Assembly (NCBI GenBank): GCA_045630455.1
Contig: JAZQTD010000030.1
Coordinates: 127,243-191,242, forward strand
DNA length: 64,000 bases
Reading direction: 5' to 3'
DNA from: Candidatus Enterousia sp.
GTDB lineage: Bacteria > Pseudomonadota > Alphaproteobacteria > Rs-D84
This document shows positions 1,416-55,328 of the stretch, one piece after another. Position numbers and translations under genes: made by a program. Position 1 is the stretch's first letter, and each line of letters opens with the position of its first letter. The notes under the pieces are model-generated. The model made no database searches and was not told where the DNA came from. It saw nothing but the letters and a program-made list of their open reading frames with translations.

Positions 1416-3509
1416 ATGTCAAACGAGAGAGAGTCTTATTCAGTCTTGAATGCTAGCGATTATAACATCGCAGGGAATCTGTTGCGAGTGTTTAGCGATT
1501 CAGATGGTAGTGTTGTATTCGTACTTGATTTGATGGTTAATGAAACTAAGCCGAATGTTTTATTGATAATTAATCCAGATGATGATCGTAAGTGGGATGA
1601 TATTCTGGAAAATGATTATGGGATTGATTTAGAAACTATACGACCAAAAAAGGACAATAAATATCAAAAACTGGATATTGAATATAGTGGGTTGACCGTC
1701 TATCAAGATTTAATTAATGCGTACGTTGCAGGGGAAGATACAGCGGATAAATTGGCTTTGTTGAATGCATTTCGCAAAATAGCTGTTCGTCGTGCTGCAT
1801 CAGAACGTCTGGTTGTAGCTGAAACAGTCTCAGATAATGCGCGTGAAACAATTGATAGAGCGAACGATTCTATTGCCGAATTAAACAATCGTGTGCGTCA
1901 GTTGCGCGCTAAATTAACGGATTTGCGTAAAAATATTGGCAAAGAACCAACAAAACAATCTGCAGCCAAGATTTTGCGTACTGAATCCCAGATTGATGCA
2001 GTAAACGAAAAAATACGTCGCGCAAAAAAGCGTTTGGAAAATGCTCAAAAGCGTTTAGTTGTTGCAACCGAAGATGCAGAAAATGCGCGTGATATATTGA
2101 CCAAGATTGGGGAAAATATGGAATTACCTGCGGTAATTCAGGATATGCCACTTGTAACAATGCCAGATAATGAATTGGCAATCGTTCAAGATGCATCTGT
2201 GCCAATGGTGTATCCCAAAGAATCAGATTTAAATTTAACAATAACAAATGAAGCAAAGGCAGAATATATGGCTGACGAAGAAGTAAAACCCTTGTTTGAT
2301 ACAGACCCGGAAATTCTGGATGAAGAAATCGCGTTCAAGCCGATTGATTTCAGTGCGCCAGTGGTTGCATCTGATATGACACCAGTTCCTGTGGCAGAAC
2401 CTCAGTTGTCAGATGTGTACGAAGAAACACCTGTGGTGGCGCCGATATCGTTTACACCGCCGGTTGTCGAAGAGACGTACCAAGAAACAGATGTCCTGCC
2501 AAGTCAGGTTAAATCTGGCACAACGCCGATGCTGGATTCTATCACGTCTGTGGAAACACCAATCGGGATGGATGTTGTCGAACAGCAACAGACGGAGTTT
2601 ATTCCACAGCCGGTTGTGCCATCGTATGCGCCAGTTTTGGAGTCAAACCCAGAACCAGGTATAGTACAAGCATCGACTGATTCTGGATTTAGACCTGTGT
2701 CCCCATTGACGGGTGTTGCGCCAGTTGCGGTGGCTGATGCCCCAAAGCGCAAACAAAGTGTAGTTTATTACATAATGCTGGTTGCGTTGATTGTGATGTC
2801 TATATTTGTGCTATGGTTCTATCAGAAGACGACTGGTGGAAATGCAGTGCCAAATATTGGTGATGCCGTTATGCCAGAAGCGCTTGTGTCTGCAGAACCC
2901 GAAGAAGTCGCAGAACCAGAACCTGTTGTAGAAGAGGTTCTTGTGACAGAAATCGAAGAACCAGAACCTGTTGTAGAAGAGCCCGTGGTGGTTGAGCCTG
3001 TTGTACAGCCAGAGCCAGAACCTGAGCCAATGCCAGAACCCGTTGTGATAGAGGCTGAACCTGTGGTGGTCGAACCAACGGAAATTGTTGTTCCTGTGAC
3101 TGCGCCGGTGATAAATACTGTGCCGACCGTCGTCCCAGAACCAGAAGTTGTACAAGTAGTCGAGACCGAAGAAGAAATCTTGGCAAAAAAGCCTGCGTAT
3201 GGCGTTTCCCAGAAAGAAGCGATGTTTGTGGCGGATGACAAATTTGAAACAGACAGATTGGCGGCTGATACGAAGGTCGATATGTATGATACTCCGATTG
3301 TTCGTGTTCAAGATACGACACCAGTGATACAATATCAAGAGCCAGAAATTATCGAAGAATTTATAGGAGAAGATGTCCCAGCCTGTGAAGGTGGCGCATC
3401 ACCTGATCGATTTGGCTGCTGTCCGGGGGAATCATATACCCAGATTGATAATGGTGGATTTGTGTGCTGCCCAGATGCGGGTGGCGATTGTTTCCCGCCG
3501 TTGTTCTAA
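1416..3509 (+). CDS. Hypothetical bitopic membrane protein: N-terminal coiled-coil, one TM helix, a Pro/Glu/Val-rich repeat linker, and a C-terminal Cys-rich domain.
   Basis: 697-aa ORF. Coiled-coil-like region around aa 130-230. TM helix VVYYIMLVALIVMSIFVLWFY. Repeats of the form EPEPVVEE. C-terminus CEGGASPDRFGCCPGESYTQIDNGGFVCCPDAGGDCFPPLF. Tandem 42-bp DNA repeats around 2914-2984. Confidence 0.6.
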   Translation: MSNERESYSVLNASDYNIAGNLLRVFSDSDGSVVFVLDLMVNETKPNVLLIINPDDDRKWDDILENDYGIDLETIRPKKDNKYQKLDIEYSGLTVYQDLINAYVAGEDTADKLALLNAFRKIAVRRAASERLVVAETVSDNARETIDRANDSIAELNNRVRQLRAKLTDLRKNIGKEPTKQSAAKILRTESQIDAVNEKIRRAKKRLENAQKRLVVATEDAENARDILTKIGENMELPAVIQDMPLVTMPDNELAIVQDASVPMVYPKESDLNLTITNEAKAEYMADEEVKPLFDTDPEILDEEIAFKPIDFSAPVVASDMTPVPVAEPQLSDVYEETPVVAPISFTPPVVEETYQETDVLPSQVKSGTTPMLDSITSVETPIGMDVVEQQQTEFIPQPVVPSYAPVLESNPEPGIVQASTDSGFRPVSPLTGVAPVAVADAPKRKQSVVYYIMLVALIVMSIFVLWFYQKTTGGNAVPNIGDAVMPEALVSAEPEEVAEPEPVVEEVLVTEIEEPEPVVEEPVVVEPVVQPEPEPEPMPEPVVIEAEPVVVEPTEIVVPVTAPVINTVPTVVPEPEVVQVVETEEEILAKKPAYGVSQKEAMFVADDKFETDRLAADTKVDMYDTPIVRVQDTTPVIQYQEPEIIEEFIGEDVPACEGGASPDRFGCCPGESYTQIDNGGFVCCPDAGGDCFPPLF

Positions 3510-11646: not shown

Positions 11647-12570
11647 TTATTTGTCCAATGGCTCAACCGCATATTCGCCTGGCTGAATCATCATATATGG
11701 ACTGTTAGCGCCGTTGTTGCTGTCTTCGCCCAACAAAGATGCGCGGAATTTCATGCCGCTGGTTGTAAACTCTGTTTTGAAAAGCGCGTATCCAGTGCCA
11801 CCACCGGTTGTAGGACCTTGCATTCCCAGTGAATAATATCCACCCAAGATGCCATAGTCCAAGTCGATATAGTCTAGACTGACAATTAAAGATACACTGC
11901 TGATGCCGTCGCTGGTCATATTGCACGCAAATTCACGGTTGGACAATACTGCCTCTGAATTAGCGGGGACCATTAAGTCCATAACAGTTGGTTCGCACAC
12001 ACGGTCGATACCGTTTACCAAGAAATCATATGTCATACCAACGGTTGCTTTGGATAGACCTGTTGAAACGCTGACCTGGGAAATCGTGGCCTTTGGTATT
12101 TTGACCATTGCGTTGGCAATGCCACTGCGAACAGGGAAAGAAATTCCAGACTGTAAGCAATCTCGTGAGAATGGGTCGGCTTCGCATATATAAAGGCGCG
12201 AATGTGCGTTCATCATAAACATATTTGCCAGACTGTTGAACAAGAATGTACGTGTAATACGGTCGTTCAGACGTGTGCAACCAAAATTGCGGCAAATAAC
12301 CATTGGGCGATTTGCAAACATAACACCAGGGTGTGCGGCCTCTTCTGCGGCGCGAGCATCCATAATATTCTGGTCATAGTCCAGGCTGTCTGCGCGATTC
12401 ATAAATTCTGTTTCTGGGATAAAATTAGGGTCGTCTGGGTACGCATAGTACGACTGAACCGGCGTTTCAGTGTAAATCGTTTGAAAATTATCCATTACAA
12501 TATCAGTGTTCGCGTACGCGTTTGGTGCGACTAAACCTAATAAGAAACCAGTTAAAAAGAGTCTTTTCAT
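11647..12570 (-). CDS. Secreted hypothetical protein.
   Basis: Signal peptide MKRLFLTGFLLGLVAPNAYA; 307 aa with several Cys; no recognised domain. Confidence 0.5.
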   Translation of the reverse strand: MKRLFLTGFLLGLVAPNAYANTDIVMDNFQTIYTETPVQSYYAYPDDPNFIPETEFMNRADSLDYDQNIMDARAAEEAAHPGVMFANRPMVICRNFGCTRLNDRITRTFLFNSLANMFMMNAHSRLYICEADPFSRDCLQSGISFPVRSGIANAMVKIPKATISQVSVSTGLSKATVGMTYDFLVNGIDRVCEPTVMDLMVPANSEAVLSNREFACNMTSDGISSVSLIVSLDYIDLDYGILGGYYSLGMQGPTTGGGTGYALFKTEFTTSGMKFRASLLGEDSNNGANSPYMMIQPGEYAVEPLDK

Positions 12571-24494: not shown

Positions 24495-25412
24495 ATGAAA
24501 CATATACCTGTATTATTGAATGCGGTGCTGGATGCCTTGGGGGATATTCGAGGACTGCATATTGTGGACTGCACATTTGGTGCGGGTGGATATACGCGTG
24601 CATTTTTAGAGCGTGGAGCGCGTGTGACTGCGTTTGACCGCGATCCAAATGTCTTGGTTGATGTTGATGCGGTGCGTGCGGAATATGGCGACAGATTTAA
24701 CTTTATACCACGTGCGTTTTCGGCACTGAGGGAATTAGACGAGCGGTTTGATGCGATTGTGTTCGATCTGGGGATTTCGTCTATGCAGATAGACAATGGG
24801 GAACGTGGATTTTCTTTCCGTATGGATGCGCCATTGGATATGCGTATGGATAACAGAGAGAATGAGCAAAGAGCAAATAGCAAAGAGCAAATATTGACGG
24901 CTGCTCAATTGATAGAAAATTTGTCTGTTGTGGAACTGGCAACGATTTTACGCGACTATGGTGATGTGCGTAATGCGATGGGGGTTGCGCGGGCAATAAA
25001 AAATGCAGCACCCAAAACTACGTTTGAATTGCGTGATTTGATACATAATCCAAAGGATGTTGCACCGATATTTCAAGCGCTGCGCATTGCGGTTAATGAT
25101 GAGATGGGTGAAATCGAACTCGCTTTGGCGACTGTACCAGAACACTTAACCGATGGTGGCAAATGTATTTGTGTGACATTCCATTCAATCGAAGACCGAA
25201 TTGTAAAAAATACTTTTCGTGATTGGACAATTGCGCCCGGCGATCCAAGAATGCCAACGGTGGCGGCTGCGCCATTTGTATTAATAAAAACCGCCCTGCC
25301 CGATGAAGCGGAACTGGAAAATAATCCTCGCGCGCGGTCTGCGCATATGCGTGGTGTGATAAAAACAGCCCGAAAAGGGGGAATGGAATATGAAAAAGTC
25401 TGTAACAGATAA
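24495..25412 (+). CDS. rsmH: 16S rRNA m4C1402 methyltransferase RsmH (MraW).
   Basis: HIPVLL start, VDCTFGAGGY SAM-binding motif, FDLGISSMQ. Confidence 0.85.
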   Translation: MKHIPVLLNAVLDALGDIRGLHIVDCTFGAGGYTRAFLERGARVTAFDRDPNVLVDVDAVRAEYGDRFNFIPRAFSALRELDERFDAIVFDLGISSMQIDNGERGFSFRMDAPLDMRMDNRENEQRANSKEQILTAAQLIENLSVVELATILRDYGDVRNAMGVARAIKNAAPKTTFELRDLIHNPKDVAPIFQALRIAVNDEMGEIELALATVPEHLTDGGKCICVTFHSIEDRIVKNTFRDWTIAPGDPRMPTVAAAPFVLIKTALPDEAELENNPRARSAHMRGVIKTARKGGMEYEKVCNR

Positions 25413-25770
25413 AGTTATTCAGGCAGACAATGCCAAAAAGGTTAATCCGCGTGATTTATCAAGTGACCAAGATTTAACGATTGGTTTGATGAATTTGATT
25501 GCGATTGAAAATATTGTCTCAGGCAGTCAAATTGCTGAAATGGTCGCGAAGGTTCGTGAAAAGTTGATGTCACGGGTGGTTCTGGATATTAAGTTGATGA
25601 ACGAATCCTATAAAATGCTGGGGCGTGCGATGGCGTTGATTAATGATGGGATGCGCGCGTTACCAGATACCAGTCTGGCATATAAGCATTTTGATTCTGC
25701 GTACGTAATGTATTCTATGTTTTGGGGACTGAATATGGGATTTGTAAAAATTGAAGATATTTATAAATAA
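25390..25770 (+). CDS. Hypothetical protein (126 aa) overlapping the rsmH 3' end.
   Basis: ATG preceded by an AAGGGGGAA Shine-Dalgarno site; not a membrane protein, so unlikely to be ftsL. Confidence 0.4.
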   Translation: MKKSVTDKVIQADNAKKVNPRDLSSDQDLTIGLMNLIAIENIVSGSQIAEMVAKVREKLMSRVVLDIKLMNESYKMLGRAMALINDGMRALPDTSLAYKHFDSAYVMYSMFWGLNMGFVKIEDIYK

Positions 25771-25837
25771 GGTGTTGATTCAAATGTCAAAAAAATGTTA
25801 AAATATCTTTAAGAGAGAAGTGAAAGTGAAGAGTCCT

Positions 25838-28162
25838 ATGAATAAAATTTTCCGGTTTTCTGCGCTGATTGCGGCTGTTTTTGCCGCAAATTTGGCAAGT
25901 GCGATTGGTCCACAAAATTCACGTGCGACGACGGCGGGCAATGTCGCGCCGGCGCGTGCGGCGGGTCGTGAGGTACAACGTGTCGGAGAAGGCGCAAATG
26001 CACGTTCTATTGCTGCGCGTTCATCTACGGTTTCTCGTGCAGCAGCAACACCTGGCATCGCTTCGCGTGCAGATGTTGCAACCGCAGCACGAAATGCTCG
26101 TAATGCCAATACTATCTCGCGCAGTGCGGTTGCAGCGCGTAGTGCGCGAGTGGCTGCATCTCCTGTTCGTAGTGCAGTGAATACAAAACGTAGTAATGTG
26201 TCGCGTGCAGCACAGTCACGTGCGACAGCAATATTTGAAGACGTTTCTAAGATTGGTGGTGGTTATGCAAAATGTCGTGAAGCGTATGCGACATGTATGG
26301 ATCAATTTTGTGCCAAGGCAAGTGATACGTATCGCCGTTGTTTTTGCAGTGATCGTTTTACAGGTTTTCGTGAAACTGAGGACGCTCTTGATCAAGCGAA
26401 GATTTTGTTGCAACAATTTGAAGATAATAACTTGAATGCGGTTGATAAAACAGCAGCAGAAGTTAGTGCTATGTATTCTGCCACGGTTGGTGAGGCTGCT
26501 ATTAAAAATGATATCAGTGGTGCGGCATCTTTGTTGGCGGAAATTAGCGATTTGATGTCCGGCAAAAAGAAGGCGTTCAGTTCTTCATCATCTACATCGT
26601 TGGGGGTAATGTCATTGGATTTTTCGTCAGATATTGGTGATATTTGGGGTGGTTCTTCGTCTGTATCGTCGATATTCGGCGGAGGCAGTGGTGTAGACGT
26701 GACCAGTCTGGAAGGAGAAGCTTTGTTTAATCAGGTTCATAAACAGTGTTCAGCACTGGTGTCGGAAAACTGTCAAAGCAACGCGGTCGCGAATATGGCA
26801 AAAAGTGCGTACGGTATTATGATTACTCAAGATTGTAATGCTTATGAAAGAAGTATCGACACCAAGCGTCAACAAGTGCAAAATACAGTGCGTCAGGCAG
26901 AAAAAATTCTGCGAGAGGCACGTTTAGAGGAATATCGTGCTCATAATTCCCAAGATGTAAATGACTGTTTAGATAAGGTTCGTACGGCTATGTTGTCGGA
27001 TACTGCGTGTGGTGCGAATTATAAACGTTGTTTGGACTACACTGGTGCGTATATCAATCAGTCTACAGGAGAACCCATATATTCACAGCGTCTGTTTGAG
27101 TTGACTGATTTGATTTTGCTGGATGGTGCTAGTGGCGGTGGGGATGTTTTGACTAAAAACGAAAAGTTTAATCAGTTCCTTGAATCACGTAAAATGTTTG
27201 TGACGAGTGCTTTGGATTCTTGTCGTGATATTTCTGAATTGGTTTGGACGGAATTTAAGCGAGCAGCATTGATTGAAATCGCCCAGGCGCAAGATGAAAA
27301 AATAGAAAGTGTAAAGTCTTCTTGTTTGGAAGTTGTGCGTGAATGCTATGATACGCAGTCCGATGCATTGAAAAGTTTTGATGATACAACAGCAGATGCA
27401 GCTGGTGCGATGAGTGCGTATGTTGCACGTTCTATGTGTCAAGAGAAAGTCGTTGCCTGTGCATCGTTGTATGGTGAGACGGGTGATTGTAAGTTTGATG
27501 GTAATGGCAAATTATTAGATGGCGGTCGTTGTGGATTGTCCGCGTTGTTAGAATACGTAGATGCGGTTGATACTGTGAGAGCCGCAGAGGGATGTGAAGT
27601 TGCTTTAACAAATTATGTTACGGAAATGTGTACACCGACGACCGATTTTGGTGCATATCCACAGCCTTGTGCTACTTTGAGTCAGAAGGACTTGGAAGAA
27701 CAGATAAAAAAACGCGCATCGTTATATTGTATAGATGGTGCGGGTGTTAAATACGATAAGTATGAAGACGGAGCTCAAAATTTTAACGATACCGTTGTAG
27801 AAGATAAGATAACTTCTTTGATAAATCGTTTGATGTCTGATATTTCAAGTTATTTGAAGACGGAATGTGAGGCTGTGGGTGGTTTATGGTATGTAACACA
27901 ACCCGATGGTACGAATATATTAAGTGTTTTCTATCACAGTATTGCTGGGAAGATCGAAGATTTAAAAACTTACGGTGTTTGTGTGGAACAGACAGTCAAA
28001 CTGGCTTGCGAACGTCAAGATGAGTTAACTGGTAATAATGGATATGCAACATATAACTATGCTTTGGATACGTGTGAGCTTTCCGATGAATGGTATCAAT
28101 TCCAATGCACAGATGTGTTGGGTGGAACGTGGAGTAATGATGTATGTTCATGGGTGTATTAG
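25838..28162 (+). CDS. Secreted protein with an Ala/Arg/Ser low-complexity N-region and a large Cys-rich domain; unknown family.
   Basis: Signal peptide MNKIFRFSALIAAVFAANLASA. ARS-rich region around aa 30-140. More than 30 Cys, including CREAYATCMDQFC...CFC. The motif is shared with the ORF at 39123..40364. Confidence 0.6.
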   Translation: MNKIFRFSALIAAVFAANLASAIGPQNSRATTAGNVAPARAAGREVQRVGEGANARSIAARSSTVSRAAATPGIASRADVATAARNARNANTISRSAVAARSARVAASPVRSAVNTKRSNVSRAAQSRATAIFEDVSKIGGGYAKCREAYATCMDQFCAKASDTYRRCFCSDRFTGFRETEDALDQAKILLQQFEDNNLNAVDKTAAEVSAMYSATVGEAAIKNDISGAASLLAEISDLMSGKKKAFSSSSSTSLGVMSLDFSSDIGDIWGGSSSVSSIFGGGSGVDVTSLEGEALFNQVHKQCSALVSENCQSNAVANMAKSAYGIMITQDCNAYERSIDTKRQQVQNTVRQAEKILREARLEEYRAHNSQDVNDCLDKVRTAMLSDTACGANYKRCLDYTGAYINQSTGEPIYSQRLFELTDLILLDGASGGGDVLTKNEKFNQFLESRKMFVTSALDSCRDISELVWTEFKRAALIEIAQAQDEKIESVKSSCLEVVRECYDTQSDALKSFDDTTADAAGAMSAYVARSMCQEKVVACASLYGETGDCKFDGNGKLLDGGRCGLSALLEYVDAVDTVRAAEGCEVALTNYVTEMCTPTTDFGAYPQPCATLSQKDLEEQIKKRASLYCIDGAGVKYDKYEDGAQNFNDTVVEDKITSLINRLMSDISSYLKTECEAVGGLWYVTQPDGTNILSVFYHSIAGKIEDLKTYGVCVEQTVKLACERQDELTGNNGYATYNYALDTCELSDEWYQFQCTDVLGGTWSNDVCSWVY

Positions 28163-31821: not shown

Positions 31822-34683
31822 ATGAAACGCGTATTGTGTTTTTTGTTTAGTGTTTTTCTTGGCTGGACCGCGTATGCAGCCCAGGCTGTTAATGTTGAAT
31901 ATATTCATGATTTAATACTGCAAAAATGGAATATTTCTGTGCCATATAATTCCGCACTAAATAATATGCAGGCTGTGGCTAACATGAAATATTTATTAAC
32001 ATCAGTTGATGTAGCGAATGCTATGTTAAATGGGGGCGCGATTACAGATTGGGGAAACAGCACATATGCAACAAACCAAGTGGCAGATACCGTTGCCGCT
32101 AACCAGGTGATTGCAAATCTGATTAAATTGCCGGTTGGCGAATATCCGTTTGAAATAAAAACGACCAAGGATACCATATACTTCAGTTTTAGTATGTCGG
32201 CAAAAGGAAGCTTTGTTGTAAACTGGGGGGATGGCAATATAGAAGTAATAACCAACCCAGATACCAGTACTGTTACATATGATCATACGTATAATGTTGC
32301 AAAAAATTATACTATTGGCATAAAGGGAACTGCGACCGCATACAGTAATGGTTCTTCTATACCGGTGATTAGTTTTGATGGAAATGAAAACATTTCGATG
32401 ATATTTGGTTCTGTTGGCCAAGTCTTTCCAACATTAGCAAATGGTACGAATCCAAAATTTTATTACACATTTGCAAATTTGCCCAATATATCTGGTGGAA
32501 TTCCAAGTACATTGTTTAGCGGTATAACGGGTGTACCCGCAAAAAATATGTTTTATGGAACTTTTTATGGTTCTGCTGGATTAACCGGTGGCATTCCCGG
32601 GACATTGTTTTCAGGACTGGATGGCGCGCCAACCGAAGGAATATTTTATCGTACGTTCGAAAAATGTACGGGCTTAAGTGGTCCTATCCCATCCGATTTA
32701 TTCGCTGGGATTCATGGTACACCGGCACGTGATATGTTTCACAGCACGTTTTCTGGGTGCAAGGGACTGACAGCGATACCAGATGGACTGTTTGCCGGTA
32801 TAAATGGCGCGCCCGCACAACGTATGTATAATGCTACTTTTTATGAATGTTCGGGCATAACAAGTAATATCCCAGACAAGCTATTTGGTACATTTAATGG
32901 TGCTCCTCAAGAATTGATGTTTGGTAACACGTTTCATGGGTGTACTAACCTAACGGGGAAAATCCCTGTTGATTTGTTTGCTGGGATAACTGGGGCGCCA
33001 ATACAGCGTATGTTTGAAGGCACGTTCAGTATGTGTTCTGGATTAACGGGGCAAATACCGGCGAATTTATTTTCAAGCATGGGGGGGACGCCAGCCGCCA
33101 GTATGTTTTATAATACATTTACAGGATGTTCTGGGTTGACCGGCACTGTGCCAGCGGGACTGTTTGCAACATTTAGTGGTGCGCCAGCACAGCGTATGTT
33201 TAATAAAACGTTTTATAACTGTAATCAGCTGACAGGAATTGATAGTGGCGTGTTTGGTGAGTTGTCCGGTGATGCTCAAGCTGGAATGTTTGAAGAAATG
33301 TTTAATCGTGCAACCGCTTTGCGTGGTCCTTCTGCTAAGATTGGGAGTAAGTATTTGTATGAAATATGGCCCGATGCGACCAGCGCCCAGGTTGGAAAAA
33401 TGTATTCTGAGGCAACAGGTTTGTCAGATTATGAATATATACCAATTGTATGGGGGGGGCTGGGACAGCAACGACCAGATTATAAACTGTATTTAGATCA
33501 TTATTATCAGCGGGTGGGAAGCAATGGAGATGTCCGTGATTCTGATTATTTGCTAATGATTTCAGCAGCCGGTAAGTACAACATTGATTGGGGAGATGGA
33601 ACAGAAGAAGTTATTGAAAAAAATACAGTTGGAGAGCAATGGTTTGGACATGATTATGCTAATGATGGCGAATATCTTGTTCGTATTGGAGGACGGGCCA
33701 CAGAGTATGCCAGTGATCCTGATTTATCAACTGTAATATTAGGTAGCAGTATAGCGTGCATAGATGAGTGGAATCGTCCGGGTGGAAAATGTCCCCTTGC
33801 ATTAACACATATTGATGGATGTTTAGGGTGCGTTTTCCCAACATTGGAAAATGGCTCGCAACCACGATTTATTGACACATTTGCAGATGCAATGGATTTT
33901 TATAACATACCAGCCGGACTGTTTTCGGATATTAATGGTGCACCCGTGAAAAATATGTTTCAACGAACTTTTTCCTTTACATCTTTGTCAACGGTGCCGG
34001 CGGGTTTATTCGCAGGAATCCAGGGGGCGCCAGCGGAATATATGTTTAGCAGCACTTTTGCTGGTACCTATTTAGAATCAATACCAGAAGGATTGTTTGC
34101 GGGGATTAAAGGACCTCCGGCAAAAGGGATGTTTAAAGGAACGTTTACTGAAGCCGCAATAGAATCAATACCAGAAGGATTGTTTGCAGGAATCAAAGGA
34201 CCTCCGGCCGAGGATATGTTTAATGCTACATTTTCGGCTAACTGGGGACTAGAATCAATCCCCGAAGATTTATTTGCGGGCATTCAAGGTCCACCTGCCG
34301 CAGGTATGTTCGCCGGTACTTTTAGATTTGCACCAATAACATCCCTACCGTCGGGCTTATTCGCCGGGATTCAGGGACCGCCGGCCGAGGATATGTTTAA
34401 TAGTACATTTGCGAATAATTGGGGACTGGAATCAATACCTGAAAACTTATTTGCGGGGATTGATACCACCGCGCCATCTGCACGGTATATGTTTGCAGAA
34501 ACATTTAGGGACTGCTTTAACTTGACTGGACCGTCCGCACGTATTAATGGACGATACCTGTATAATATTTGGCCCGATGGATACGATATGTATTCAGGAT
34601 GCGAAGGGCTGACTGATTATAATTGTATCCCAAGTGCATGGGGCGGTGGTGGCCATAATTGCCTATGGACCGATCCTACATGA
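31822..34683 (+). CDS. Giant secreted modular repeat protein built from two modules, each a PKD-like domain followed by 7-8 novel 29-31-aa repeats (LRR-like) and a conserved C-cap.
   Basis: Signal peptide MKRVLCFLFSVFLGWTAYA. PKD-like segments VNWGDGNIEV...YDHTY and IDWGDGTEEV...GHDY. Repeat consensus LFAGIxGAPAxxMFxxTFxxCxGLTGxIPxx. Caps YLYEIWPD...GLSDYEYIPIVWGG and YLYNIWPD...GLTDYNCIPSAWGG. Confidence 0.7.
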   Translation: MKRVLCFLFSVFLGWTAYAAQAVNVEYIHDLILQKWNISVPYNSALNNMQAVANMKYLLTSVDVANAMLNGGAITDWGNSTYATNQVADTVAANQVIANLIKLPVGEYPFEIKTTKDTIYFSFSMSAKGSFVVNWGDGNIEVITNPDTSTVTYDHTYNVAKNYTIGIKGTATAYSNGSSIPVISFDGNENISMIFGSVGQVFPTLANGTNPKFYYTFANLPNISGGIPSTLFSGITGVPAKNMFYGTFYGSAGLTGGIPGTLFSGLDGAPTEGIFYRTFEKCTGLSGPIPSDLFAGIHGTPARDMFHSTFSGCKGLTAIPDGLFAGINGAPAQRMYNATFYECSGITSNIPDKLFGTFNGAPQELMFGNTFHGCTNLTGKIPVDLFAGITGAPIQRMFEGTFSMCSGLTGQIPANLFSSMGGTPAASMFYNTFTGCSGLTGTVPAGLFATFSGAPAQRMFNKTFYNCNQLTGIDSGVFGELSGDAQAGMFEEMFNRATALRGPSAKIGSKYLYEIWPDATSAQVGKMYSEATGLSDYEYIPIVWGGLGQQRPDYKLYLDHYYQRVGSNGDVRDSDYLLMISAAGKYNIDWGDGTEEVIEKNTVGEQWFGHDYANDGEYLVRIGGRATEYASDPDLSTVILGSSIACIDEWNRPGGKCPLALTHIDGCLGCVFPTLENGSQPRFIDTFADAMDFYNIPAGLFSDINGAPVKNMFQRTFSFTSLSTVPAGLFAGIQGAPAEYMFSSTFAGTYLESIPEGLFAGIKGPPAKGMFKGTFTEAAIESIPEGLFAGIKGPPAEDMFNATFSANWGLESIPEDLFAGIQGPPAAGMFAGTFRFAPITSLPSGLFAGIQGPPAEDMFNSTFANNWGLESIPENLFAGIDTTAPSARYMFAETFRDCFNLTGPSARINGRYLYNIWPDGYDMYSGCEGLTDYNCIPSAWGGGGHNCLWTDPT
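34081..34470 (+). repeat. Tandem 87-bp coding repeats (about 4.5 copies, high DNA identity) inside the repeat-protein gene.
   Basis: ATACCAGAAGGATTGTTTGC(G/A)GG...GGACCTCCGGC... recurs with an 87-bp period at about 34081, 34168, 34255, 34342 and 34429. Confidence 0.6.
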
Positions 34684-37870: not shown

Positions 37871-39052
37871 TTAGACATCAAAATTGTAGTTCTTGACCGA
37901 TTTTACAATTGCAGCAACCAATTTGTCTTGGTGTGATGATGTTTTAAGTAGTTTTTCTTCGGCAGCATTGGACAAGTGTCCCAATTCCAACAATGCCCCA
38001 GGAACAGTTGAGCGCAACACCGCAAATGGTGCGTGACGTACGTCTGGACCGGGTTGTTGAGCAATTGAATTTTTCTTGAACGCACGAGCGGCTCCGTTGG
38101 CGTATTCTTCACTCATCTCTGCAACAGCGTGTTGTTGCAATGAAGACAACGCAATACGAATATTTTCTTCGAATTCTGTAAAACCTTCTACCCCGATTTT
38201 GTCGGCAGCATTTTCAGCCTCGGCCAGTTTTTTAGCCTCTTCGTCTGAAGCCTTTTCGGAAAGTGTGTAAACCGAAAAACCCTTCATCGCGCGACTGGGG
38301 TTTGCGTTCGCGTGCAAGGATATAAATAAATCAGCCTTTTTCCGTTCTGCAATCGCGGCACGTTCTGCCAATTTTAAATACGTGTCACCGCCGCGCGTCA
38401 AATAGGTCTGAAATCCATTGGCATCCAGTTGAGTCTTTAATTTTTTCGCAACTGATAAAACTACGTCTTTTTCGCGTGTTCCACCCTTACCAATACATCC
38501 AGGATCTTTGCCACCGTGTCCTGCGTCAACAACAACAATGTATTTTTTTGTGGGTGTGGTTGACTTTTTATTTGTCATGGTGGTGGTCGCCGCAGTACCA
38601 GCAGACTGAGATGCCGCACCTGTGCCGGCTACAAAATCCAAGACCAGGCGATAATCATTATCACCATTTGGTTCCAGGATCATAATTTGTGACTTTTGAA
38701 TTTGGGCGATTGATTGATTTAGATTAACAATAATTTGTAGTGTATCCCCAGATTGAGCCTGAACTAGGGATTTTACCAACGTTCCCGATGCTAGTTTCGG
38801 ATTTAAACCTGTATTGGCTGCTGTGTTCGACAATGTCACAACTAATTGGTTTGCTGGATATGACAAAGTATAAGAGGGGCGCGTTGAGGTTTCGATTACC
38901 AAACGCGTTTTTCCACCGGGTTGCATACCGGTGCGCAAAGAACGCAATGAATTACGTGCTGCGAACGCCATACGTGGCAATGCTGTTAGCACCAAGACAC
39001 CCAACCCTGTTGTTTTCAAAACACTGCGACGAGATATTTTCATAAGGAACAT
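37871..39052 (-). CDS. amiC: N-acetylmuramoyl-L-alanine amidase (Amidase_3, AmiC-like), Tat-exported.
   Basis: Twin-arginine signal MKISRRSVLKTTGLGVLVLTALP. Amidase_3 core VVDAGHGGKDPG...ISLHAN. The internal start avoids overlap with the neighbouring gene; the ORF track extends to 39280. Confidence 0.75.
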   Translation of the reverse strand: MFLMKISRRSVLKTTGLGVLVLTALPRMAFAARNSLRSLRTGMQPGGKTRLVIETSTRPSYTLSYPANQLVVTLSNTAANTGLNPKLASGTLVKSLVQAQSGDTLQIIVNLNQSIAQIQKSQIMILEPNGDNDYRLVLDFVAGTGAASQSAGTAATTTMTNKKSTTPTKKYIVVVDAGHGGKDPGCIGKGGTREKDVVLSVAKKLKTQLDANGFQTYLTRGGDTYLKLAERAAIAERKKADLFISLHANANPSRAMKGFSVYTLSEKASDEEAKKLAEAENAADKIGVEGFTEFEENIRIALSSLQQHAVAEMSEEYANGAARAFKKNSIAQQPGPDVRHAPFAVLRSTVPGALLELGHLSNAAEEKLLKTSSHQDKLVAAIVKSVKNYNFDV

Positions 39053-39122
39053 TATATCAAAAAAACACCTGTTATTCAAGCGTATTGATGGGAATAAAAA
39101 TCCCGCACGTGGCGGGCTTCGT

Positions 39123-40364
39123 TTATTTGCTGATGCAGCTGGCGAACGTTTGTGCCAAAAGAGATGTTTCAGACTGAGATAATTGTGCCACAGGAATAGT
39201 ATAGCATCGTGCACTGTCGCGGATAACAAAAACCTTGGTGCCACGTTTGTATGCAGTTTGCATATTATCCATTTGAGCACTTGTTAAAAATGCGTTTTGG
39301 GTCAGTGCGTTATTCGTCAAGCCTGCCTGAACTACTTGGTACGCAGTTGCATAGTCCCATAATTCAGAACGCGATTCGATTTCCATAAAAACAGACTGTG
39401 TTTCATATGGATTTTCAAGCTTTACATTAGTTGTTGGAAAAGCTGTCCCAATCGCCAGTGCAGCGACAGTTTGCAGAGCTGTAGGCTCGTTTGAAGAAGC
39501 AACTGTGCCAGTTGTGTTGATTTGCAAATTATCGCCACATGCTAAATTCATGCGATTTGTATAGCCTGCCAAAACAGCATCAACAGCCGCTTGCCAATCT
39601 GCACCTTTTTCATTCAGATTCAGGCTTACGATTTTTTCAGCCCAGCCCCAAATATTTGCACCTACGTTGCCAGCACTAGCGAAACGCGATACCATTTCAG
39701 CACTGCCCCCAGGAACGCCCGAGCCACAGTAATCTGTCAAATAAGAATTAAGTTTACTAGATGTTTCGTTGCTATATGCAAGTGCAACCGAATGGCATGC
39801 CATTGCTGCTTCTAATTCTTGGCGACGTTGGATACATAAATCAGAATTAGACTTAGATAACAGGGTTGCCATATTTGCCATAGATAAGTAGGACATTAGT
39901 TCCTGTTGCACATAGGATGGGCACAGACGTGCGGCCGTATTCATGCCACCTGGACTGGTGCGAGTGTTCGTGTTATATTGGGGCAATAATACTGAATTGT
40001 CTTTCTGTAGACACAATAATGTATAGTTGTACAATTCGGATTCCGTAGCATATTGACACTTAGATGTGCGCTGACCTGGGACGGTTGTTATATCCCCGCA
40101 ATATTCGGATAAACACGCATAAATCTTTTCGCGACACGCCGTATCAACATCTGGCTGGGTTACCATATAGTATGTATTACGCTGGTTAGCCTTGTACGCG
40201 TTGGCCAACCCTTGGTTGCCACGTGCGCCGTCTGTGCTGGGCGTATACATAGAAACACTGCGCGAATTAGATGCGGAATTTGCAGCATTTACAGTTCCCA
40301 TAGTTGCAGCATTGGCACCAAAACACAGGCTAAACAAGCCAAAATATATTAGAACTTTATTCAT
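39123..40364 (-). CDS. Secreted Cys-rich protein, paralogous to the 25838..28162 product.
   Basis: Signal peptide MNKVLIYFGLFSLCFGANA. Low-complexity N-region. Shared motif DTACREKIYACLSEYC, compare AKCREAYATCMDQFC. Confidence 0.6.
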   Translation of the reverse strand: MNKVLIYFGLFSLCFGANAATMGTVNAANSASNSRSVSMYTPSTDGARGNQGLANAYKANQRNTYYMVTQPDVDTACREKIYACLSEYCGDITTVPGQRTSKCQYATESELYNYTLLCLQKDNSVLLPQYNTNTRTSPGGMNTAARLCPSYVQQELMSYLSMANMATLLSKSNSDLCIQRRQELEAAMACHSVALAYSNETSSKLNSYLTDYCGSGVPGGSAEMVSRFASAGNVGANIWGWAEKIVSLNLNEKGADWQAAVDAVLAGYTNRMNLACGDNLQINTTGTVASSNEPTALQTVAALAIGTAFPTTNVKLENPYETQSVFMEIESRSELWDYATAYQVVQAGLTNNALTQNAFLTSAQMDNMQTAYKRGTKVFVIRDSARCYTIPVAQLSQSETSLLAQTFASCISK

Positions 40365-40481
40365 TAGAATCCCTCTCGATGTTCTGATTGTATCATATTA
40401 TGCAAAAAAACGCAAACATTGTTTTGGATAAAAATCCAAATTTTAATTGATTCAAATAAAATCCGTGCTAGAATCACTACT

Positions 40482-41553
40482 ATGATGATGGTTAACGAAG
40501 TTTTATCGCAAATTTCCGACGACATTTCTGCCGTCAGGGGGTTTCTTTGACCCTGACAAATTACAATCCCAAATAGACGAATTAAACATTCAAGTAAACA
40601 CCCCAAATTTATGGAATAAGCCGGATGTGGCACGTGCAATTTTGCAGAAAAAGTCTAGCTTAGAAAAATCACTGGGGGAATTAAATCATTTGGAATCTGA
40701 ATACAAAAATCTAAGCGAACTGTATCAGATTGCGCCAGATGACGCGGATGTTATCGCGGGCATTGAGTCTTTGGCAGATGCCGCGCATCGCGCAAAATTT
40801 ATTACCCTATTCCGCGAACCAGCCGACAACAATGGTGCGTTTCTTTTTATCCAGGCTGGTGCGGGTGGGACCGAGGCACAAGATTGGGCGCAAATGCTGT
40901 CGCGCATGTATGCGCGCTGGGCGGAACGTCACGGTTTTTCAATAGAAGTCATTGAAGAACACGAAGGTGATACCGCAGGTATAAAGAATGTTACATATCG
41001 TATTTCGGGCGACCGTGCGTATGGATGGCTAAAAAATGAAATCGGCGTTCATCGACTGGTTCGCATTTCACCGTTTAATGCTAATGGCAAACGTCAGACT
41101 AGCTTTGCATCTGTTGACGTATGGCCAGACGTTGATGACGCAATTGAAATTGAAATTAATGACAAAGATTTGCGTATTGATACGTATCGCTCGTCTGGCG
41201 CGGGTGGTCAGCATGTCAATAAAACGGATAGCGCGGTTCGTATTACCCATATTCCGACAAACACTGTTGTAACATGCCAGAATGAACGCAGTCAGATTCA
41301 AAATCGTGAGATGGCGATGAAAATGTTGCGTAGCAAACTGTACGAACTGGAAATGCAAAAGCGCGCCGAAGAAGAAAATGCCGCACTGGCACAACAAAAG
41401 AAAATCGAATGGGGCAGTCAGATAAGAAATTATGTCTTGTATCCGTATCAATTGGTCAAAGATGTGCGTACAGGGGTTGAAAAGACGGATTCTGACGCGG
41501 TTCTGGATGGGGATTTGGACGATTTTATGTTAAGCCTATTGCAGCGTTCATAA
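40482..41553 (+). CDS. prfB: Peptide chain release factor 2, requiring a programmed +1 ribosomal frameshift.
   Basis: Frame 0 reads MMMVNEVLSQISDDISAVRGFL then TGA at 40548. The internal Shine-Dalgarno AGGGGG and CTT TGA C slippery site match the canonical prfB recoding signal. The +1 frame continues DPDKLQ... through SPF and GGQHVNKTDSAVR motifs. Confidence 0.9.
40533..40551 (+). other. prfB +1 programmed frameshift site.
   Basis: gtcAGGGGGtttCTTTGAC; the in-frame UGA sits at 40548-40550. Confidence 0.85.
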
Positions 41554-42635: not shown

Positions 42636-42995
42636 ATGAAAAAAATTGTCGCTTTTTTAGTGTTGTTTTGTGCCCTGCCCGATGTGGCGTGCGCATATAT
42701 TGATCGTGATGTCGCCAATGTGCGCGTTATGAACAAGGCAGCTGGCAAGGTTTATGATTTAAATATTTCTGTTGGAAATTCTGCACAGTTTGAAAAACTG
42801 GATATCACTGTACGTGCATGTAAACAAAGCGACCCGTTTGATGCAGAGGATTTCTTTGCATTTTTGGAAATTTCAACAGCAACAGACGGTTTGGTGTTTA
42901 GTAACTGGATGTCACGGAACGAGCCTGGGGTGCGCCCGCTGCAAAATGCAGACTATGATTTATGGTTGGTTAGTTGTGAAAGCGAAGAGAGGTAA
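42636..42995 (+). CDS. Small secreted protein.
   Basis: Signal peptide MKKIVAFLVLFCALPDVACA; start chosen at the internal Met of the 131-aa ORF. Confidence 0.45.
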   Translation: MKKIVAFLVLFCALPDVACAYIDRDVANVRVMNKAAGKVYDLNISVGNSAQFEKLDITVRACKQSDPFDAEDFFAFLEISTATDGLVFSNWMSRNEPGVRPLQNADYDLWLVSCESEER

Positions 42996-43705: not shown

Positions 43706-44392
43706 ATGAAGTGGTTAGTCGCATTGTTTTTACTGACTGGGTGTGTGGGTGTACCAGGAATCCCATCGGGCGAGAACTATCTGGGGGCAAAATATATTCG
43801 AGACCCGTTGGGCGAAGAAAAAGCACCTGACAAAGACCCCTTGATTCGCACAGATGCGTTTGATTGCACTACGTTCGTTGAAACCGTTATGGCGGGTGGC
43901 GATGTAAGTAACCTGAACCAAATTCGATATAAAGATGGCGAAATCGACTTTATGAACCGTAATCATTTTATTGAAACAGACTGGCTAAAAAACAATTCAA
44001 ATCGCGTTGAAAATGTTAGCGCACAATACGGAAAAACCAAAACGCGCAGACTGACAATTGACAAAGCAAAATGGCTAAAAAAAGTCCATAAAATCGATAC
44101 AGATATTGCGCCAGAATTTGTGACACTGGAATATGTGCCATATAAAAATTTAAGTCTGCCAAACAATACAGAAACTATGATTGTTTTGTTCATTAGTGCA
44201 AATTCAAACAGCGCTGATACAATTGGCACGGAACTGGCGGTCACGCATATGGGGTTATTGTTGCCGGGGGGCGAAACATTACGCCACGCGTCTTCGGCGG
44301 CGGGTCATGTGGTTGATGCAGACTTTATGAAATATTCTTCGCGCCGTCGCCAGATGGGCGAAATGGGGGTTGCTTTTATCGCAATAAAATAA
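43706..44392 (+). CDS. Lipoprotein with conserved Cys/His residues, possibly a thiol-hydrolase fold (speculative).
   Basis: Lipobox LLTGC. FDCTTFVE Cys motif and downstream His residues (VTHMG, AGHVVD). Stop lies 2 nt before the tsaD start. Confidence 0.45.
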   Translation: MKWLVALFLLTGCVGVPGIPSGENYLGAKYIRDPLGEEKAPDKDPLIRTDAFDCTTFVETVMAGGDVSNLNQIRYKDGEIDFMNRNHFIETDWLKNNSNRVENVSAQYGKTKTRRLTIDKAKWLKKVHKIDTDIAPEFVTLEYVPYKNLSLPNNTETMIVLFISANSNSADTIGTELAVTHMGLLLPGGETLRHASSAAGHVVDADFMKYSSRRRQMGEMGVAFIAIK

Positions 44393-52557: not shown

Positions 52558-54483
52558 ATGGAATTCAATCAATTGGTTATGTGGGGCGGCGCAATATTGG
52601 GCGGACTATTGTTTATCACACTAATGGTGCTGTTTTTTGTATCGCGCAAATCACAAAAAGTGATGCAGTCGCTGCTGGACATTATGCTGCAACCAGAGCG
52701 CGCTAAAATTACCGATGCAACACGCGTATTAAGCACAATTCTAAAAGACGAAATCAGCAAGATTGAATCCAGCTTTGTCACAATGCGTAATACACTAAAC
52801 GCACAAATCGCGTCTGCAAAAGAGCTGCAACACATACTAGATGAACAGAATGAAAAATTAATATCACTGGCCGATGAGGCAACCAAAAAAATATCAAATA
52901 TGTCGGGCAGATTAGACAATACTGTACACGGATTAAACGATGTGGTAGAGTCTGAAAAGTGGCACGATGTAGAAATCGCAACTGACAAATTTAGCAATAC
53001 TGTCAATCAGTTATTGAATGAAATTAACAACACAACTGAAGAAACCGCAAACCGCACCGCCCAGATACAATCACAAATTGTTTCATGGGTTGCGACCAGT
53101 GAAAGTTTATCGGAACACTTGGGGGCCGAATTCAATAAAAACACCGAACAGATGAAAAATCTGACTGGCGAATCTGAAACTATGATAGGCAAGATTTCAG
53201 AACTGGCACAGTCAACCGCAGATGGTTTCAGCAACGTTAAAAGTTCTGCAGTTAACTATGAAGAAATAATGATACGCAATGACAGACTGTTGGACGGATA
53301 TCTGGACAAGATGGATACATTTAGCAAGCAGTCCAAGAAACAATTAACTAGCCAGATGAATACACTGACCAATACAGCCAATGTTGTTGGGGGTCAGGTG
53401 CGCCTGGCTGAATCATCAATAGATAAACAAATCAAAAAATTAACCGATGCGGTTGAAAAGCTGATGGCATCCGCTACAGAAACCGAAGGGGCAGTACGTG
53501 GCATATCAGGCGAAATCGCGACACTGACCAAGCATTTTGATGGTGAAATCAAAGAATTTGCAACTGGTGTTGTATCAGAACTGAAAACCGTTTCTGGGGT
53601 TGCTAATATCACACTGGAAAACACACGTGGTGCGGCGAATGCGTTTTCAGACTCGGTCAAAGCAATGGCGACTGGCGTGCGCGAAACACTTATCGAAATG
53701 AATACAGCGCATACACAACTGTCTGGACAGTCTGAAAACCTGATTAAAATGTCAGCCGAGACAACCGCCCAGTTGCAACCGCTGTCAGAACTTATTGAAA
53801 AATATTATGCTGCCCTGCCCGATTTGAGTAAAGACTCGGTCGAGACAAGTGAAAAGCTGGAAAAGATTGTCGCAAGCCTGACAGAAAAAGTTAACCAGAT
53901 GAAGGCGGCCGTCAACGAATCTACGAATGCAGTATCTGAATCCGCTATTAAACTGGAAGATTTGGCCGGCACGTCACGCCAGCAAATGATTGATTTGATG
54001 TCTGATTATGCTAAAGCCGTGAATACAATGCAGACGCTGAACAAGCAAATGATGGTGGCACGCGCAACCGCACCAATGGATGCAATCAAGGCCGCACCTG
54101 CGGAATCTTTTGGCAAAATTAGCTCTGCTGACTTTTTAGCGCAAGCAGAAAAGATGTTTGAAAAGTTGCACGAACAGTCACAAGACCTGACCCGGGCGAC
54201 CGGTGCTGATATACCAGACGTAGTGCTGAATAAATATCATGCAGGCGACAAAACTATATTCTCTAAGTGGCTGGCTAAAATGATGAATGCAGCAGACAAA
54301 AAACAAATCCGCAGTATGATTAAGTCTGATGCAGTTTTCCGTTCCCAGGCAACACAATTCATGCGCAGTTTCGACAAAATTATGAATGGCGCACGCGAAG
54401 CGGATAATTCGGATAAACTGATGACGACACTGCTTAAAACTGATTTGGGACAGATATACACAGCACTTAAAAACAATATGTAA
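52558..54483 (+). CDS. Membrane-anchored, long alpha-helical/coiled-coil protein.
   Basis: N-terminal TM GGAILGGLLFITLMVLFFV, then about 600 aa that are Gln/Glu/Thr/Ala-rich with heptad-like periodicity; no enzymatic motif. Confidence 0.55.
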   Translation: MEFNQLVMWGGAILGGLLFITLMVLFFVSRKSQKVMQSLLDIMLQPERAKITDATRVLSTILKDEISKIESSFVTMRNTLNAQIASAKELQHILDEQNEKLISLADEATKKISNMSGRLDNTVHGLNDVVESEKWHDVEIATDKFSNTVNQLLNEINNTTEETANRTAQIQSQIVSWVATSESLSEHLGAEFNKNTEQMKNLTGESETMIGKISELAQSTADGFSNVKSSAVNYEEIMIRNDRLLDGYLDKMDTFSKQSKKQLTSQMNTLTNTANVVGGQVRLAESSIDKQIKKLTDAVEKLMASATETEGAVRGISGEIATLTKHFDGEIKEFATGVVSELKTVSGVANITLENTRGAANAFSDSVKAMATGVRETLIEMNTAHTQLSGQSENLIKMSAETTAQLQPLSELIEKYYAALPDLSKDSVETSEKLEKIVASLTEKVNQMKAAVNESTNAVSESAIKLEDLAGTSRQQMIDLMSDYAKAVNTMQTLNKQMMVARATAPMDAIKAAPAESFGKISSADFLAQAEKMFEKLHEQSQDLTRATGADIPDVVLNKYHAGDKTIFSKWLAKMMNAADKKQIRSMIKSDAVFRSQATQFMRSFDKIMNGAREADNSDKLMTTLLKTDLGQIYTALKNNM

Positions 54484-54668: not shown

Positions 54669-55328
54669 ATGTCTTTACCAAAATCAGAAATATCAGAAAT
54701 TCTAAGCGTGTTTAGCAATGTGCTGACCCGTTTGATTGACTGCGTTGAAAATGATGCACTCTTTCAACCACACGAACGCCGCGCCCTTCTGAACACGATG
54801 TATGAAAAAATGTGTGGTGTACAAATGGATAAAATACTGAATCAGGCGAACGCAAACCACAAACTGCAATTAAAGCGCGGTAATGCAAGCGCAAACGACG
54901 CCTATGTGGGACTGAGTGGTGAAATAACAATAGATACAGATGCAAATACATTGCGCGTACACGACGGCGAAAATGCTGGCGGCGTGGCACTGGCGCGTAC
55001 ATCAGACACAATTGGCGACTGGGTCGTTGAAAGCCAGTTACCAACCGCTGAAAACAATTATACATGGTACAGAAAATATAAATCTGGCTGGGTTGAGCAA
55101 GGCGGCATATTCGATACCCCAGGCAAAGGTTATCAAAGTATAATATTGCCAGTCGAAATGGCGGACACGGGTTTTTCCGCCCAGGTAACACGCGCCGCCG
55201 GCACATCAACCAGCGCAATTGATTGCTGGATACAATCGCCAGGCGCTTCCCTGTCAACAACGACATTGGTGTATTATGTCGCCACACAAACTGGGTTATC
55301 TTGGTTTGTTTGCGGAATAGCTAAATAA
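54669..55328 (+). CDS. Hypothetical protein with a phage-tail-fibre-like segment.
   Basis: Segment KLQLKRGNASANDAYVGLSGEITIDTDANTLRVHDGENAGG resembles the Gly-rich beta-repeats of phage fibre/spike proteins; 219 aa, normal GC content. Confidence 0.4.
   Translation: MSLPKSEISEILSVFSNVLTRLIDCVENDALFQPHERRALLNTMYEKMCGVQMDKILNQANANHKLQLKRGNASANDAYVGLSGEITIDTDANTLRVHDGENAGGVALARTSDTIGDWVVESQLPTAENNYTWYRKYKSGWVEQGGIFDTPGKGYQSIILPVEMADTGFSAQVTRAAGTSTSAIDCWIQSPGASLSTTTLVYYVATQTGLSWFVCGIAK

Follow-up and report, generated by a model that had tools for sequence, protein, structure and literature searches.

Two described groups of exported bacterial proteins offer a comparison for the gene reported here. 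The Helicobacter cysteine-rich proteins (Hcp), which are built from Sel1-like repeats, are Sec-exported, helical and stapled by disulfides at a short, fixed cysteine (Cys) spacing. The proteins OmcB and OmcA of the chlamydiae, likewise small-genome bacteria, combine a signal peptide and a basic N-terminal stretch with many Cys residues, and are thought to stiffen the envelope by disulfides. We analyzed a 64,000-nucleotide (nt) stretch of Candidatus Enterousia sp. (GenBank assembly GCA_045630455.1, contig JAZQTD010000030.1, positions 127,243 to 191,242; hereafter, the window), in which an open reading frame (ORF) encodes an exported, Cys-rich protein of 413 amino acids (aa), the founding member of what we call family A. 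The reading that we favor, with modest confidence, is that the whole order shares a core exported protein of which this one is the Enterousia ortholog, that the 413-aa protein acts as a disulfide-stabilized, non-catalytic component of the cell envelope, and that it is separate from the family of a second Cys-rich exported protein in the window, of 774 aa (family B). Unlike Hcp, family A has no Sel1 match in Pfam, no internal repeat and no Foldseek match to a solved structure. Its likeness to OmcB and OmcA is a functional analogy only, with no similarity in sequence or fold, and the family A model is helical. Enterousia keeps peptidoglycan genes (amiC in the window; genes for a Mur ligase and Ddl in related locus L085), and MrdA has been reported in it (PMC12306168).

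The family A ORF is on the minus strand and runs from an ATG at 40364 to a TAA at 39125–39123. Its N-terminus, MNKVLIYFGLFSLCFGANA followed by A, shows by eye a basic n-region, a 13-residue hydrophobic core and an A-x-A at −3/−1, and both the A-x-A and the n/h/c layout are kept across the homologs in alignment A1. As judged from these sequence features, family A is a Sec-type exported protein with a predicted n/h/c signal ending in A-x-A, and is not a lipoprotein. The alternative of a lipoprotein, raised by the sequence LCFG, was ruled out, because C14 is not conserved in A1 and there is therefore no lipobox. Residues 20–73 are 63% S/T/N/Q/A/G with a net charge of +1. They are followed by DTACREKIYACLSEYCGD (aa 74–91; C77 at nt 40136), where the Cys motif, present as CREKIYACLSEYC, begins. 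Twelve Cys residues are invariant in A1 (positions 77, 84, 89, 103, 118, 148, 177, 190, 213, 276, 387 and 410), and the first four of these, which make up the motif, are kept in nearly all members of the wider superfamily defined below. An earlier note on this DNA had described an ORF with a signal-like N-terminus, a polar low-complexity stretch and a Cys motif, and all three were confirmed on the sequence.

Homologs of the protein numbered 958 at E ≤ 1e-3. The best 120 were full length and 69–100% identical, and all were "hypothetical proteins" of uncultured gut Alphaproteobacteria. When one genome per GTDB species was scanned, 281 contigs proved to carry a relative. Of these, 80 were fetched, and they are titled as Candidatus Enterousia, Alphaproteobacteria or Rickettsiales metagenome-assembled genomes (MAGs), with the guts of humans, chickens, ruminants, horses and rabbits as their source. 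Two contigs carrying family A and prfB (L026 and L030, the latter also with amiC) are filed under Muribaculaceae and Bacteroides fragilis records and are probably mis-binned. A hidden Markov model (HMM) of the A superfamily found only one clear member per locus in the loci examined, and prfB lay divergently upstream of family A in 83/83 related loci. Family A is restricted to alphaproteobacteria of Candidatus Enterousia and the order Rs-D84, and is a core gene of this lineage. Identity to the window genes across related loci was 67–89% for family A, 61–88% for AmiC and 80–95% for PrfB. Since family A tracks AmiC and falls below PrfB, its divergence fits ordinary purifying rather than diversifying selection, which indicates that, by this measure, it evolves like an ordinary housekeeping envelope protein.

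Candidatus Enterousia and its order are widespread in human and animal guts, have genomes of <1 Mb and have never been cultured. Published genomes of Enterousia, which belongs to the order Rs-D84, measure ~0.75–1.0 Mb and are without the tricarboxylic acid cycle and respiratory chains; a partner-dependent lifestyle has been proposed, with hypothetical envelope proteins as mediators of contact (PMC12306168). Considering that the gene is kept in every examined member, with 12 invariant Cys residues and no relative detected among curated families or solved structures, it is very likely to be important for the envelope of these bacteria.

An exhaustive profile search with A1 yielded 69 representatives, from which a diverse domain alignment was built (effective number of sequences, Neff, 4.3). 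The region of aa 74–280 with its ten Cys residues is common to proteins of ~400 aa (P0265, P0267 and P0272), ~425–490 aa (the P0293 group) and 660–845 aa (P0276, P0279, P0289 and others); we define these as the 10-Cys superfamily, and all ten residues are present and alignable in the window protein. The 400–845-aa hypothetical proteins (P0272, P0293, P0276, P0289) are true homologs, since they share the helical domain with its ten Cys at profile E-values of 1e-5 to 1e-18; their identity to family A is 15–26%, and one subgroup is without C84 and C118. Where a source is named, it is a "Rickettsiales bacterium" or "Alphaproteobacteria bacterium" MAG. Like family A, the 400–490-aa relatives adjoin prfB, and the distant orthologs P0272 and P0321, at 19–24% identity in alignment A3, also lie directly beside it. 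The long relatives of 660–845 aa bear large, variable, Cys-rich C-terminal extensions instead of the alpha/beta domain of family A, and the one whose context was inspected adjoins bamE, not prfB. These long profile matches were also considered as members of family B, and turned out to be A-like proteins with other C-termini.

AlphaFold2 (AF2) modeling of family A with close homologs only gave a predicted local distance difference test score (pLDDT) of 48.7, which was too poor for use, and with distant relatives added the mean pLDDT was 66.6. The better model has helices over aa 51–276, with a pLDDT mostly of 70–83 for the block and two dips, and ends in a compact alpha/beta domain (strands at 326–330, 378–382 and 387–391) with a pLDDT of 83–90 from about aa 331. 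Scores of the better model fell below 50 at aa 15–50, a disordered stretch, and again at aa 285–318 and 320–322; the polar linker (aa 20–73) had a pLDDT of <50 in both AF2 models. In family A, disordered linkers connect two folded parts: a helical domain of ~200 aa with ten Cys residues and an alpha/beta domain of ~90 aa with two, C387 and C410, which are invariant in alignment A3.

The columns that are invariant across the superfamily are the ten Cys of the helical domain together with L85, A186, G214, F228 and Y268; no conserved constellation of acid, His or Ser residues occurs among them, and with nothing that looks catalytic we read family A as non-enzymatic. In one subgroup (six representatives) C84 and C118 were replaced together and all other Cys residues stayed, a joint loss that a C84–C118 disulfide predicts. 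We propose that family A would be exported by Sec and its signal peptide cleaved, after which the 12 Cys residues would form six intramolecular disulfides that staple the helical bundle and the small alpha/beta domain. The product would then contribute to the cell envelope in a structural or binding capacity, without catalysis. Since no anchor or known secretion signal was seen, the periplasm is its default location. These bacteria, with their very small genomes and a probable dependence on partners, would keep the gene because their envelope needs it.

Several observations weigh against this proposal. The AF2 model of family A is of medium confidence (predicted template modeling score, 0.36), and the joint loss of C84 and C118 probably happened only once in evolution. 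Searches of Pfam, NCBIfam, PDB sequences and Foldseek were all without a match and give no homology clue to function. Specifically, Pfam and NCBIfam scans assigned no family to the two window proteins and nine relatives, and Pfam at E ≤ 1 returned nothing for family A, including the Sel1 repeat and OmcB-type profiles. A PDB sequence search with profiles of families A and B gave 0 matches at E ≤ 10. Foldseek with the better model reached best E-values of 0.87 in PDB and 0.019 in BFVD at TM-scores of ~0.1, which is no match. No paper that mentions these proteins came up when the literature was searched for Enterousia, Rs-D84 and three signature peptides. Moreover, as these gut anaerobes are reported to lack respiratory chains (PMC12306168), the usual DsbA/DsbB–quinone route may be absent, in which case the Cys residues could bind metal or stay reduced; a search confined to the 64-kb window found no Dsb or VKOR system.

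The earlier note had regarded the 413- and 774-aa proteins as paralogs in one expanded family that share a Cys motif. The shared motif pointed out in the note is real and specific: it is the first Cys cluster past the polar linker in both proteins, and its Cys residues are invariant within family A and within family B. In the 774-aa protein it occurs as AKCREAYATCMDQFCAK, with the spacing C146-x6-C153-x4-C158-x9-C168-x-C170 (nt 26273–26347; C146 at nt 26273). Only the ORFs of these two proteins were matched by a loose regular expression in the six-frame translation of the window, and a tight pattern, C-x6-C-[LFIMV]-x2-[FYHW]-C, added one spurious ORF of 78 aa. When the ORFs of the window were pooled with those of 89 related loci (~530,000 aa in all), the tight pattern found only families A and B, a third family (B2, described below) and the same spurious ORF. 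Of 20,000 shuffles of the mature 774-aa protein, 0.05% contained it and 0.01% contained its four-Cys extension, and because the pattern was set after the match had been seen, these shuffle and locus figures are upper bounds on significance.

Beyond the motif, the two proteins could not be aligned. The top BLASTP segment between A and B was the signal peptide; the best non-signal segments had E-values of 0.25–0.31 over 12–13 aa, the motif itself scoring 0.31 over 13. With hhalign, alignments A1 (family A, 34 sequences) and A2 (family B, 35 sequences) paired through their signal peptides alone (probability, 4.8%). In a widened comparison, with the diverse A domain alignment and family B broadened by B2, just 24–26 motif columns aligned, at E 0.067 (probability, 0.8%) and E 0.0046 (7.6%). 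With filters off, hmmsearch detected no cross-match between A and B in the window or among the representatives, and an HMM of the superfamily A motif alone did not retrieve B or B2 among 3,372 ORFs. The ten Cys of the helical domain of A are those listed above up to C276, and those of B lie at 146, 153, 158, 168, 170, 304, 312, 333, 377 and 391, so that the spacing past the fourth Cys reads 15, 30, 29, 13, 23 and 63 in A versus 2, 134, 8, 21, 44 and 14 in B. Pairwise and profile alignments thus limit the similarity to about 26 residues of motif, with a different Cys spacing after it, which is the outcome that the note had named as weakening its claim. The paralogy claimed in the note is not supported by these comparisons, and the two proteins appear to belong to separate families. 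In the loci examined, each occurs as one conserved ortholog in a fixed neighborhood of its own, and neither is the product of a recent local expansion.

The two could still be very divergent paralogs, members of one Cys-rich exported family of which the motif is the last recognizable remnant, and we consider this doubtful. The C-x6-C-x4-C spacing is identical in A and B, with hydrophobic or aromatic residues at matching places, and in both the cluster comes first behind the signal peptide and the polar linker. The four-Cys spacing of B recurs unchanged in some distant A relatives, which also have a basic pair before the fourth Cys (CAYQIRVCLDEFCTDEFDGYKKC versus CREAYATCMDQFCAKASDTYRRC). The motif is also the best local match of the widest profiles (hhalign E 0.0046), and its rarity, at ≤0.05% of shuffles and confined to A, B and B2 among the real proteins of 90 loci, points the same way. 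However, nothing aligns outside the 24–26 columns, where the hhalign probability is ≤7.6%, HMMs find nothing even with filters off, and the Cys spacing past the fourth residue differs. In addition, the pattern was defined post hoc, and convergence can yield a short helix with spaced Cys residues.

Family B is itself a conserved ortholog, with 938 database matches and a fixed context of secA-dnaE-rsmH-(small ORFs)-B-...-iPGM-...-L25-dnaK. In the window the 774-aa gene follows rsmH (mraW; 24495–28162 for the pair, plus strand), with a single 126-aa ORF (25390–25770) between them. In the distant relative L084 (1–1723), the same place has the usual order mraZ-rsmH-(97-aa ORF)-penicillin-binding protein/ftsI, and ftsL and ftsI must lie elsewhere in Enterousia. 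The third family, B2, was first seen in locus L034 upstream of prfB, as a Cys-rich ORF beginning ...CMDQFC. It has 1,299 database matches, with lengths of 820–861 aa among the 120 listed, and an HMM search found no B2 gene in the 64-kb window. B and B2 matched by BLASTP at E 4e-24 (24% identity over 407 aa, the alignment starting at the motif) and by HMM at E 6.5e-19; on this alignment evidence, B2 is a true paralog of the 774-aa protein. B and B2 are clearly homologous; homology of the 413-aa protein to either of them is not demonstrable. Families A and B/B2 occur in the same lineage and the same genomes (the MAG locus-tag prefixes IJX89, IJD69, IJX43, IKW57 and E7011 recur among matches to all three), have no Pfam match, and share one layout, in which a signal peptide and a polar, mostly basic linker precede C-x6-C-(L/M)-x2-(F/Y)-C-x9..13-C; however, they differ in length, gene neighborhood and later Cys spacing, with ~26 alignable residues.

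Of the lineage-specific secreted family that the note had envisaged, one part holds, in that Rs-D84 has several lineage-restricted families of Cys-rich exported proteins, and the other, a single family containing both window proteins, does not. Families A, B and B2, together with a 460-aa protein of locus L087 (C-x6-C-MDAQ), all have a signal peptide, a polar linker of 22–143 aa with a net charge of 0 to +16, and the Cys motif. It is conceivable, though unlikely, that this N-terminal layout, with its disordered linker and a helix of the form C-x6-C-(L/M)-D/S-x-(F/Y)-C, is a lineage-specific module carried by at least four otherwise unalignable groups (A, the long A-like proteins, B/B2 and the L087 protein), which would anchor or direct them into a common, possibly disulfide-cross-linked envelope layer. 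By analogy, such a module could be likened to SLH and other anchoring domains that occur on unrelated surface proteins; if it exists, these small-genome gut alphaproteobacteria would build an unusual, Cys-rich envelope. Family A, the 774-aa protein, B2 and other Cys-rich exported proteins make up a secretome beyond annotation by existing resources.

More Cys-rich ORFs with signal-like N-termini, lacking the C-x6-C-x4-C motif, were seen in related loci (L037 483–1673, L041 429–1817, L005 7655–9247, L015 7519–9237, L055 7506–9242, L071 7479–9230, L087 1486–3216 and L089 10428–11993); one example packs 48 Cys into 397 aa, another 60 into 463 aa. A motif-free, Cys-rich family of ~530–580 aa is encoded a few kilobases downstream of amiC in related genomes.

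A protein displayed on the cell surface or released from it, by which the cell would attach to the host or a partner organism or carry out exchange with them, is another role that we hold to be unlikely for family A. Genomes of <1 Mb without many biosynthetic pathways and standard transporters, and the partner-dependent lifestyle proposed for them (PMC12306168), would suit such a role, as would the many Cys-rich exported proteins of related genomes and the long, variable, Cys-rich C-terminal extensions of the 660–845-aa relatives. On the other hand, family A shows neither an outer-membrane anchor or lipobox nor an autotransporter or known secretion-system signal, and across chicken, human, sheep and deer it is conserved like a housekeeping periplasmic enzyme, which is unusual for proteins that face a host or partner.

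The gene downstream of family A on the same strand is amiC, at a distance of ≤600 bp in 48/83 related loci and ≤~3.3 kb in 70/83. In Escherichia coli, the LytM-type activators NlpD and EnvC activate cell-separation amidases. This adjacency, the export of both products and their similar sequence divergence across species would be expected of a periplasmic partner or regulator of AmiC in the place of such activators, a role that we nevertheless judge improbable for family A. More than 20 loci have other genes between the two, the distant orthologs in L084 and L085/L086 keep prfB with no amiC nearby, and Pfam reveals no LytM or other known activator domain. Co-transcription is also opposed by sequence predictions: a hairpin of ≤−8 kcal/mol immediately before a T run, within 70 nt of the family A stop codon, occurs in 74/86 related loci with differing stem sequences, and a promoter-like CTTGAA...TGATATAAT recurs past it at the same place in relatives. 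We therefore rejected membership of family A in an amiC operon; the gene looks monocistronic, and its link to amiC is one of conserved gene order. Its own candidate promoter has a −35 hexamer that matches 3/6 positions and was not reported in the promoter scan.

Binding of a metal (Zn or Fe-S) by the conserved Cys residues in place of disulfides would accord with the four closely spaced invariant Cys that open the helical domain, with the reported lack of respiratory chains and with the lack of a Dsb-like gene in the window, but is very unlikely, because no Fe-S or zinc-finger family of Pfam or NCBIfam has this spacing, each domain holds an even number of Cys (10 and 2), C84 and C118, 34 residues apart, are lost jointly as a disulfide pair would be, and the Cys residues are spread across 200 helical residues and not clustered.

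The disulfide-stabilized envelope component remains our preferred reading of family A, and the coordinates of its parts and neighbors are collected in Table 1.

Table 1. Coordinates of family A, its parts and associated features (window positions unless a related locus or protein is named)
Feature	Position	Strand	Basis
Coding sequence of the 413-aa exported Cys-rich protein (family A), including stop codon	39123..40364	-	ORF and homologs
Signal peptide, aa 1–19 (MNKVLIYFGLFSLCFGANA), predicted cut after A-N-A	40308..40364	-	Read from sequence; hydrophobic core and A-x-A kept in A1
Polar low-complexity linker, aa 20–73, conserved end RGNQGLANAYKxNQRNTYYMVTQPDVD	40146..40307	-	Composition, pLDDT
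Four-Cys motif C77-x6-C84-x4-C89-x13-C103	40056..40136	-	Sole part alignable with the 774-aa protein
Helical domain, aa 74–280, 10 conserved Cys, common to 400–845-aa relatives	39525..40145	-	Profile search, domain alignment, AF2
Inter-domain linker, aa 281–322, variable, probably disordered	39399..39524	-	Least conserved A1 block, low pLDDT
C-terminal alpha/beta domain, aa 323–413, with invariant C387 and C410	39126..39398	-	AF2, alignment A3
Probable own promoter TTGCGT (40415–40410)-17-TGaTACAAT (−10 at 40392–40387) and Shine-Dalgarno GAGAGGG (40377–40371)	40370..40415	-	Read by eye
Terminator-like hairpin CCCGCCACGTGCGGG then ATTTTTATT, 6 nt past stop	39093..39116	-	Sequence prediction
Promoter-like TTGAAT-17-TATAAT (with TG) for amiC	39051..39079	-	Sequence scan
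amiC (AMIN and Amidase_3), start ATG 39043, twin-arginine MKISRRSVLK	37871..39043	-	Pfam, sequence, ortholog lengths
prfB, divergent neighbor, +1 frameshift CTT TGA C at 40545	40482..41553	+	117-nt intergenic region
774-aa Cys-rich exported protein (family B)	25838..28162	+	ORF, alignments, conserved context
B2 Cys-rich exported family	L034 1–2421; P0333–P0452		Motif CYDAYYGCMDQFC...C-x-CSD

The long amiC ORF, from a GTG at 39280, overlaps the family A gene by 158 nt. Starting at the ATG at 39043 gives MKISRRSVLKTTGLG with its twin-arginine motif and replaces the overlap by a 79-nt gap, in which the terminator-like hairpin and the promoter-like site of Table 1 lie. From codon 2 the product matches Pfam AMIN and Amidase_3, and the called amiC products of relatives are 382–390 aa long, with gaps of ~75 nt. 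The internal start suggested in the earlier note therefore stands, fitting both the twin-arginine motif and the ortholog lengths. In practice, the amiC start should be set at 39043, and annotation of the two window proteins as members of one family should be avoided.

The frameshift site of prfB (40545–40551) reads MMMVNEVLSQISDDISAVRGFL, then CTT TGA C, with a Shine-Dalgarno-like AGGGGG before it; the joined product is 356 aa, and a plain ORF list gives only the 308-aa downstream part. Further along the same strand, the window has two more envelope-related genes, which encode a DUF2155 protein with a signal peptide (42636–42995) and a candidate AmiA-like (PF07313) amidase-like lipoprotein (43706–44392).

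Two other secreted ORFs of the window, of 953 and 307 aa, were checked as further members and found to be unrelated. The 953-aa ORF (31822–34683, plus strand) has a signal peptide and ~20 tandem units of LFAGIxGAPAxxMFxxTFxxCxxLTG, and resembles a leucine-rich-repeat surface protein, with no Pfam match; its spot is variable and holds other genes in L088 and L089. The 307-aa ORF (11647–12570, minus strand), which has a signal peptide and 6 Cys residues, is one of three sizeable ORFs without a significant Pfam family, the others being at 1416–3509 (plus strand) and 52558–54483 (plus strand). The hydrophobic N-terminal stretch of the last may be a membrane anchor. Finally, a small protein with an Mtd_N domain (the N-terminal domain of the major tropism determinant of diversity-generating retroelements) is encoded at 54669–55328 (plus strand) and again in L001 (439–933).

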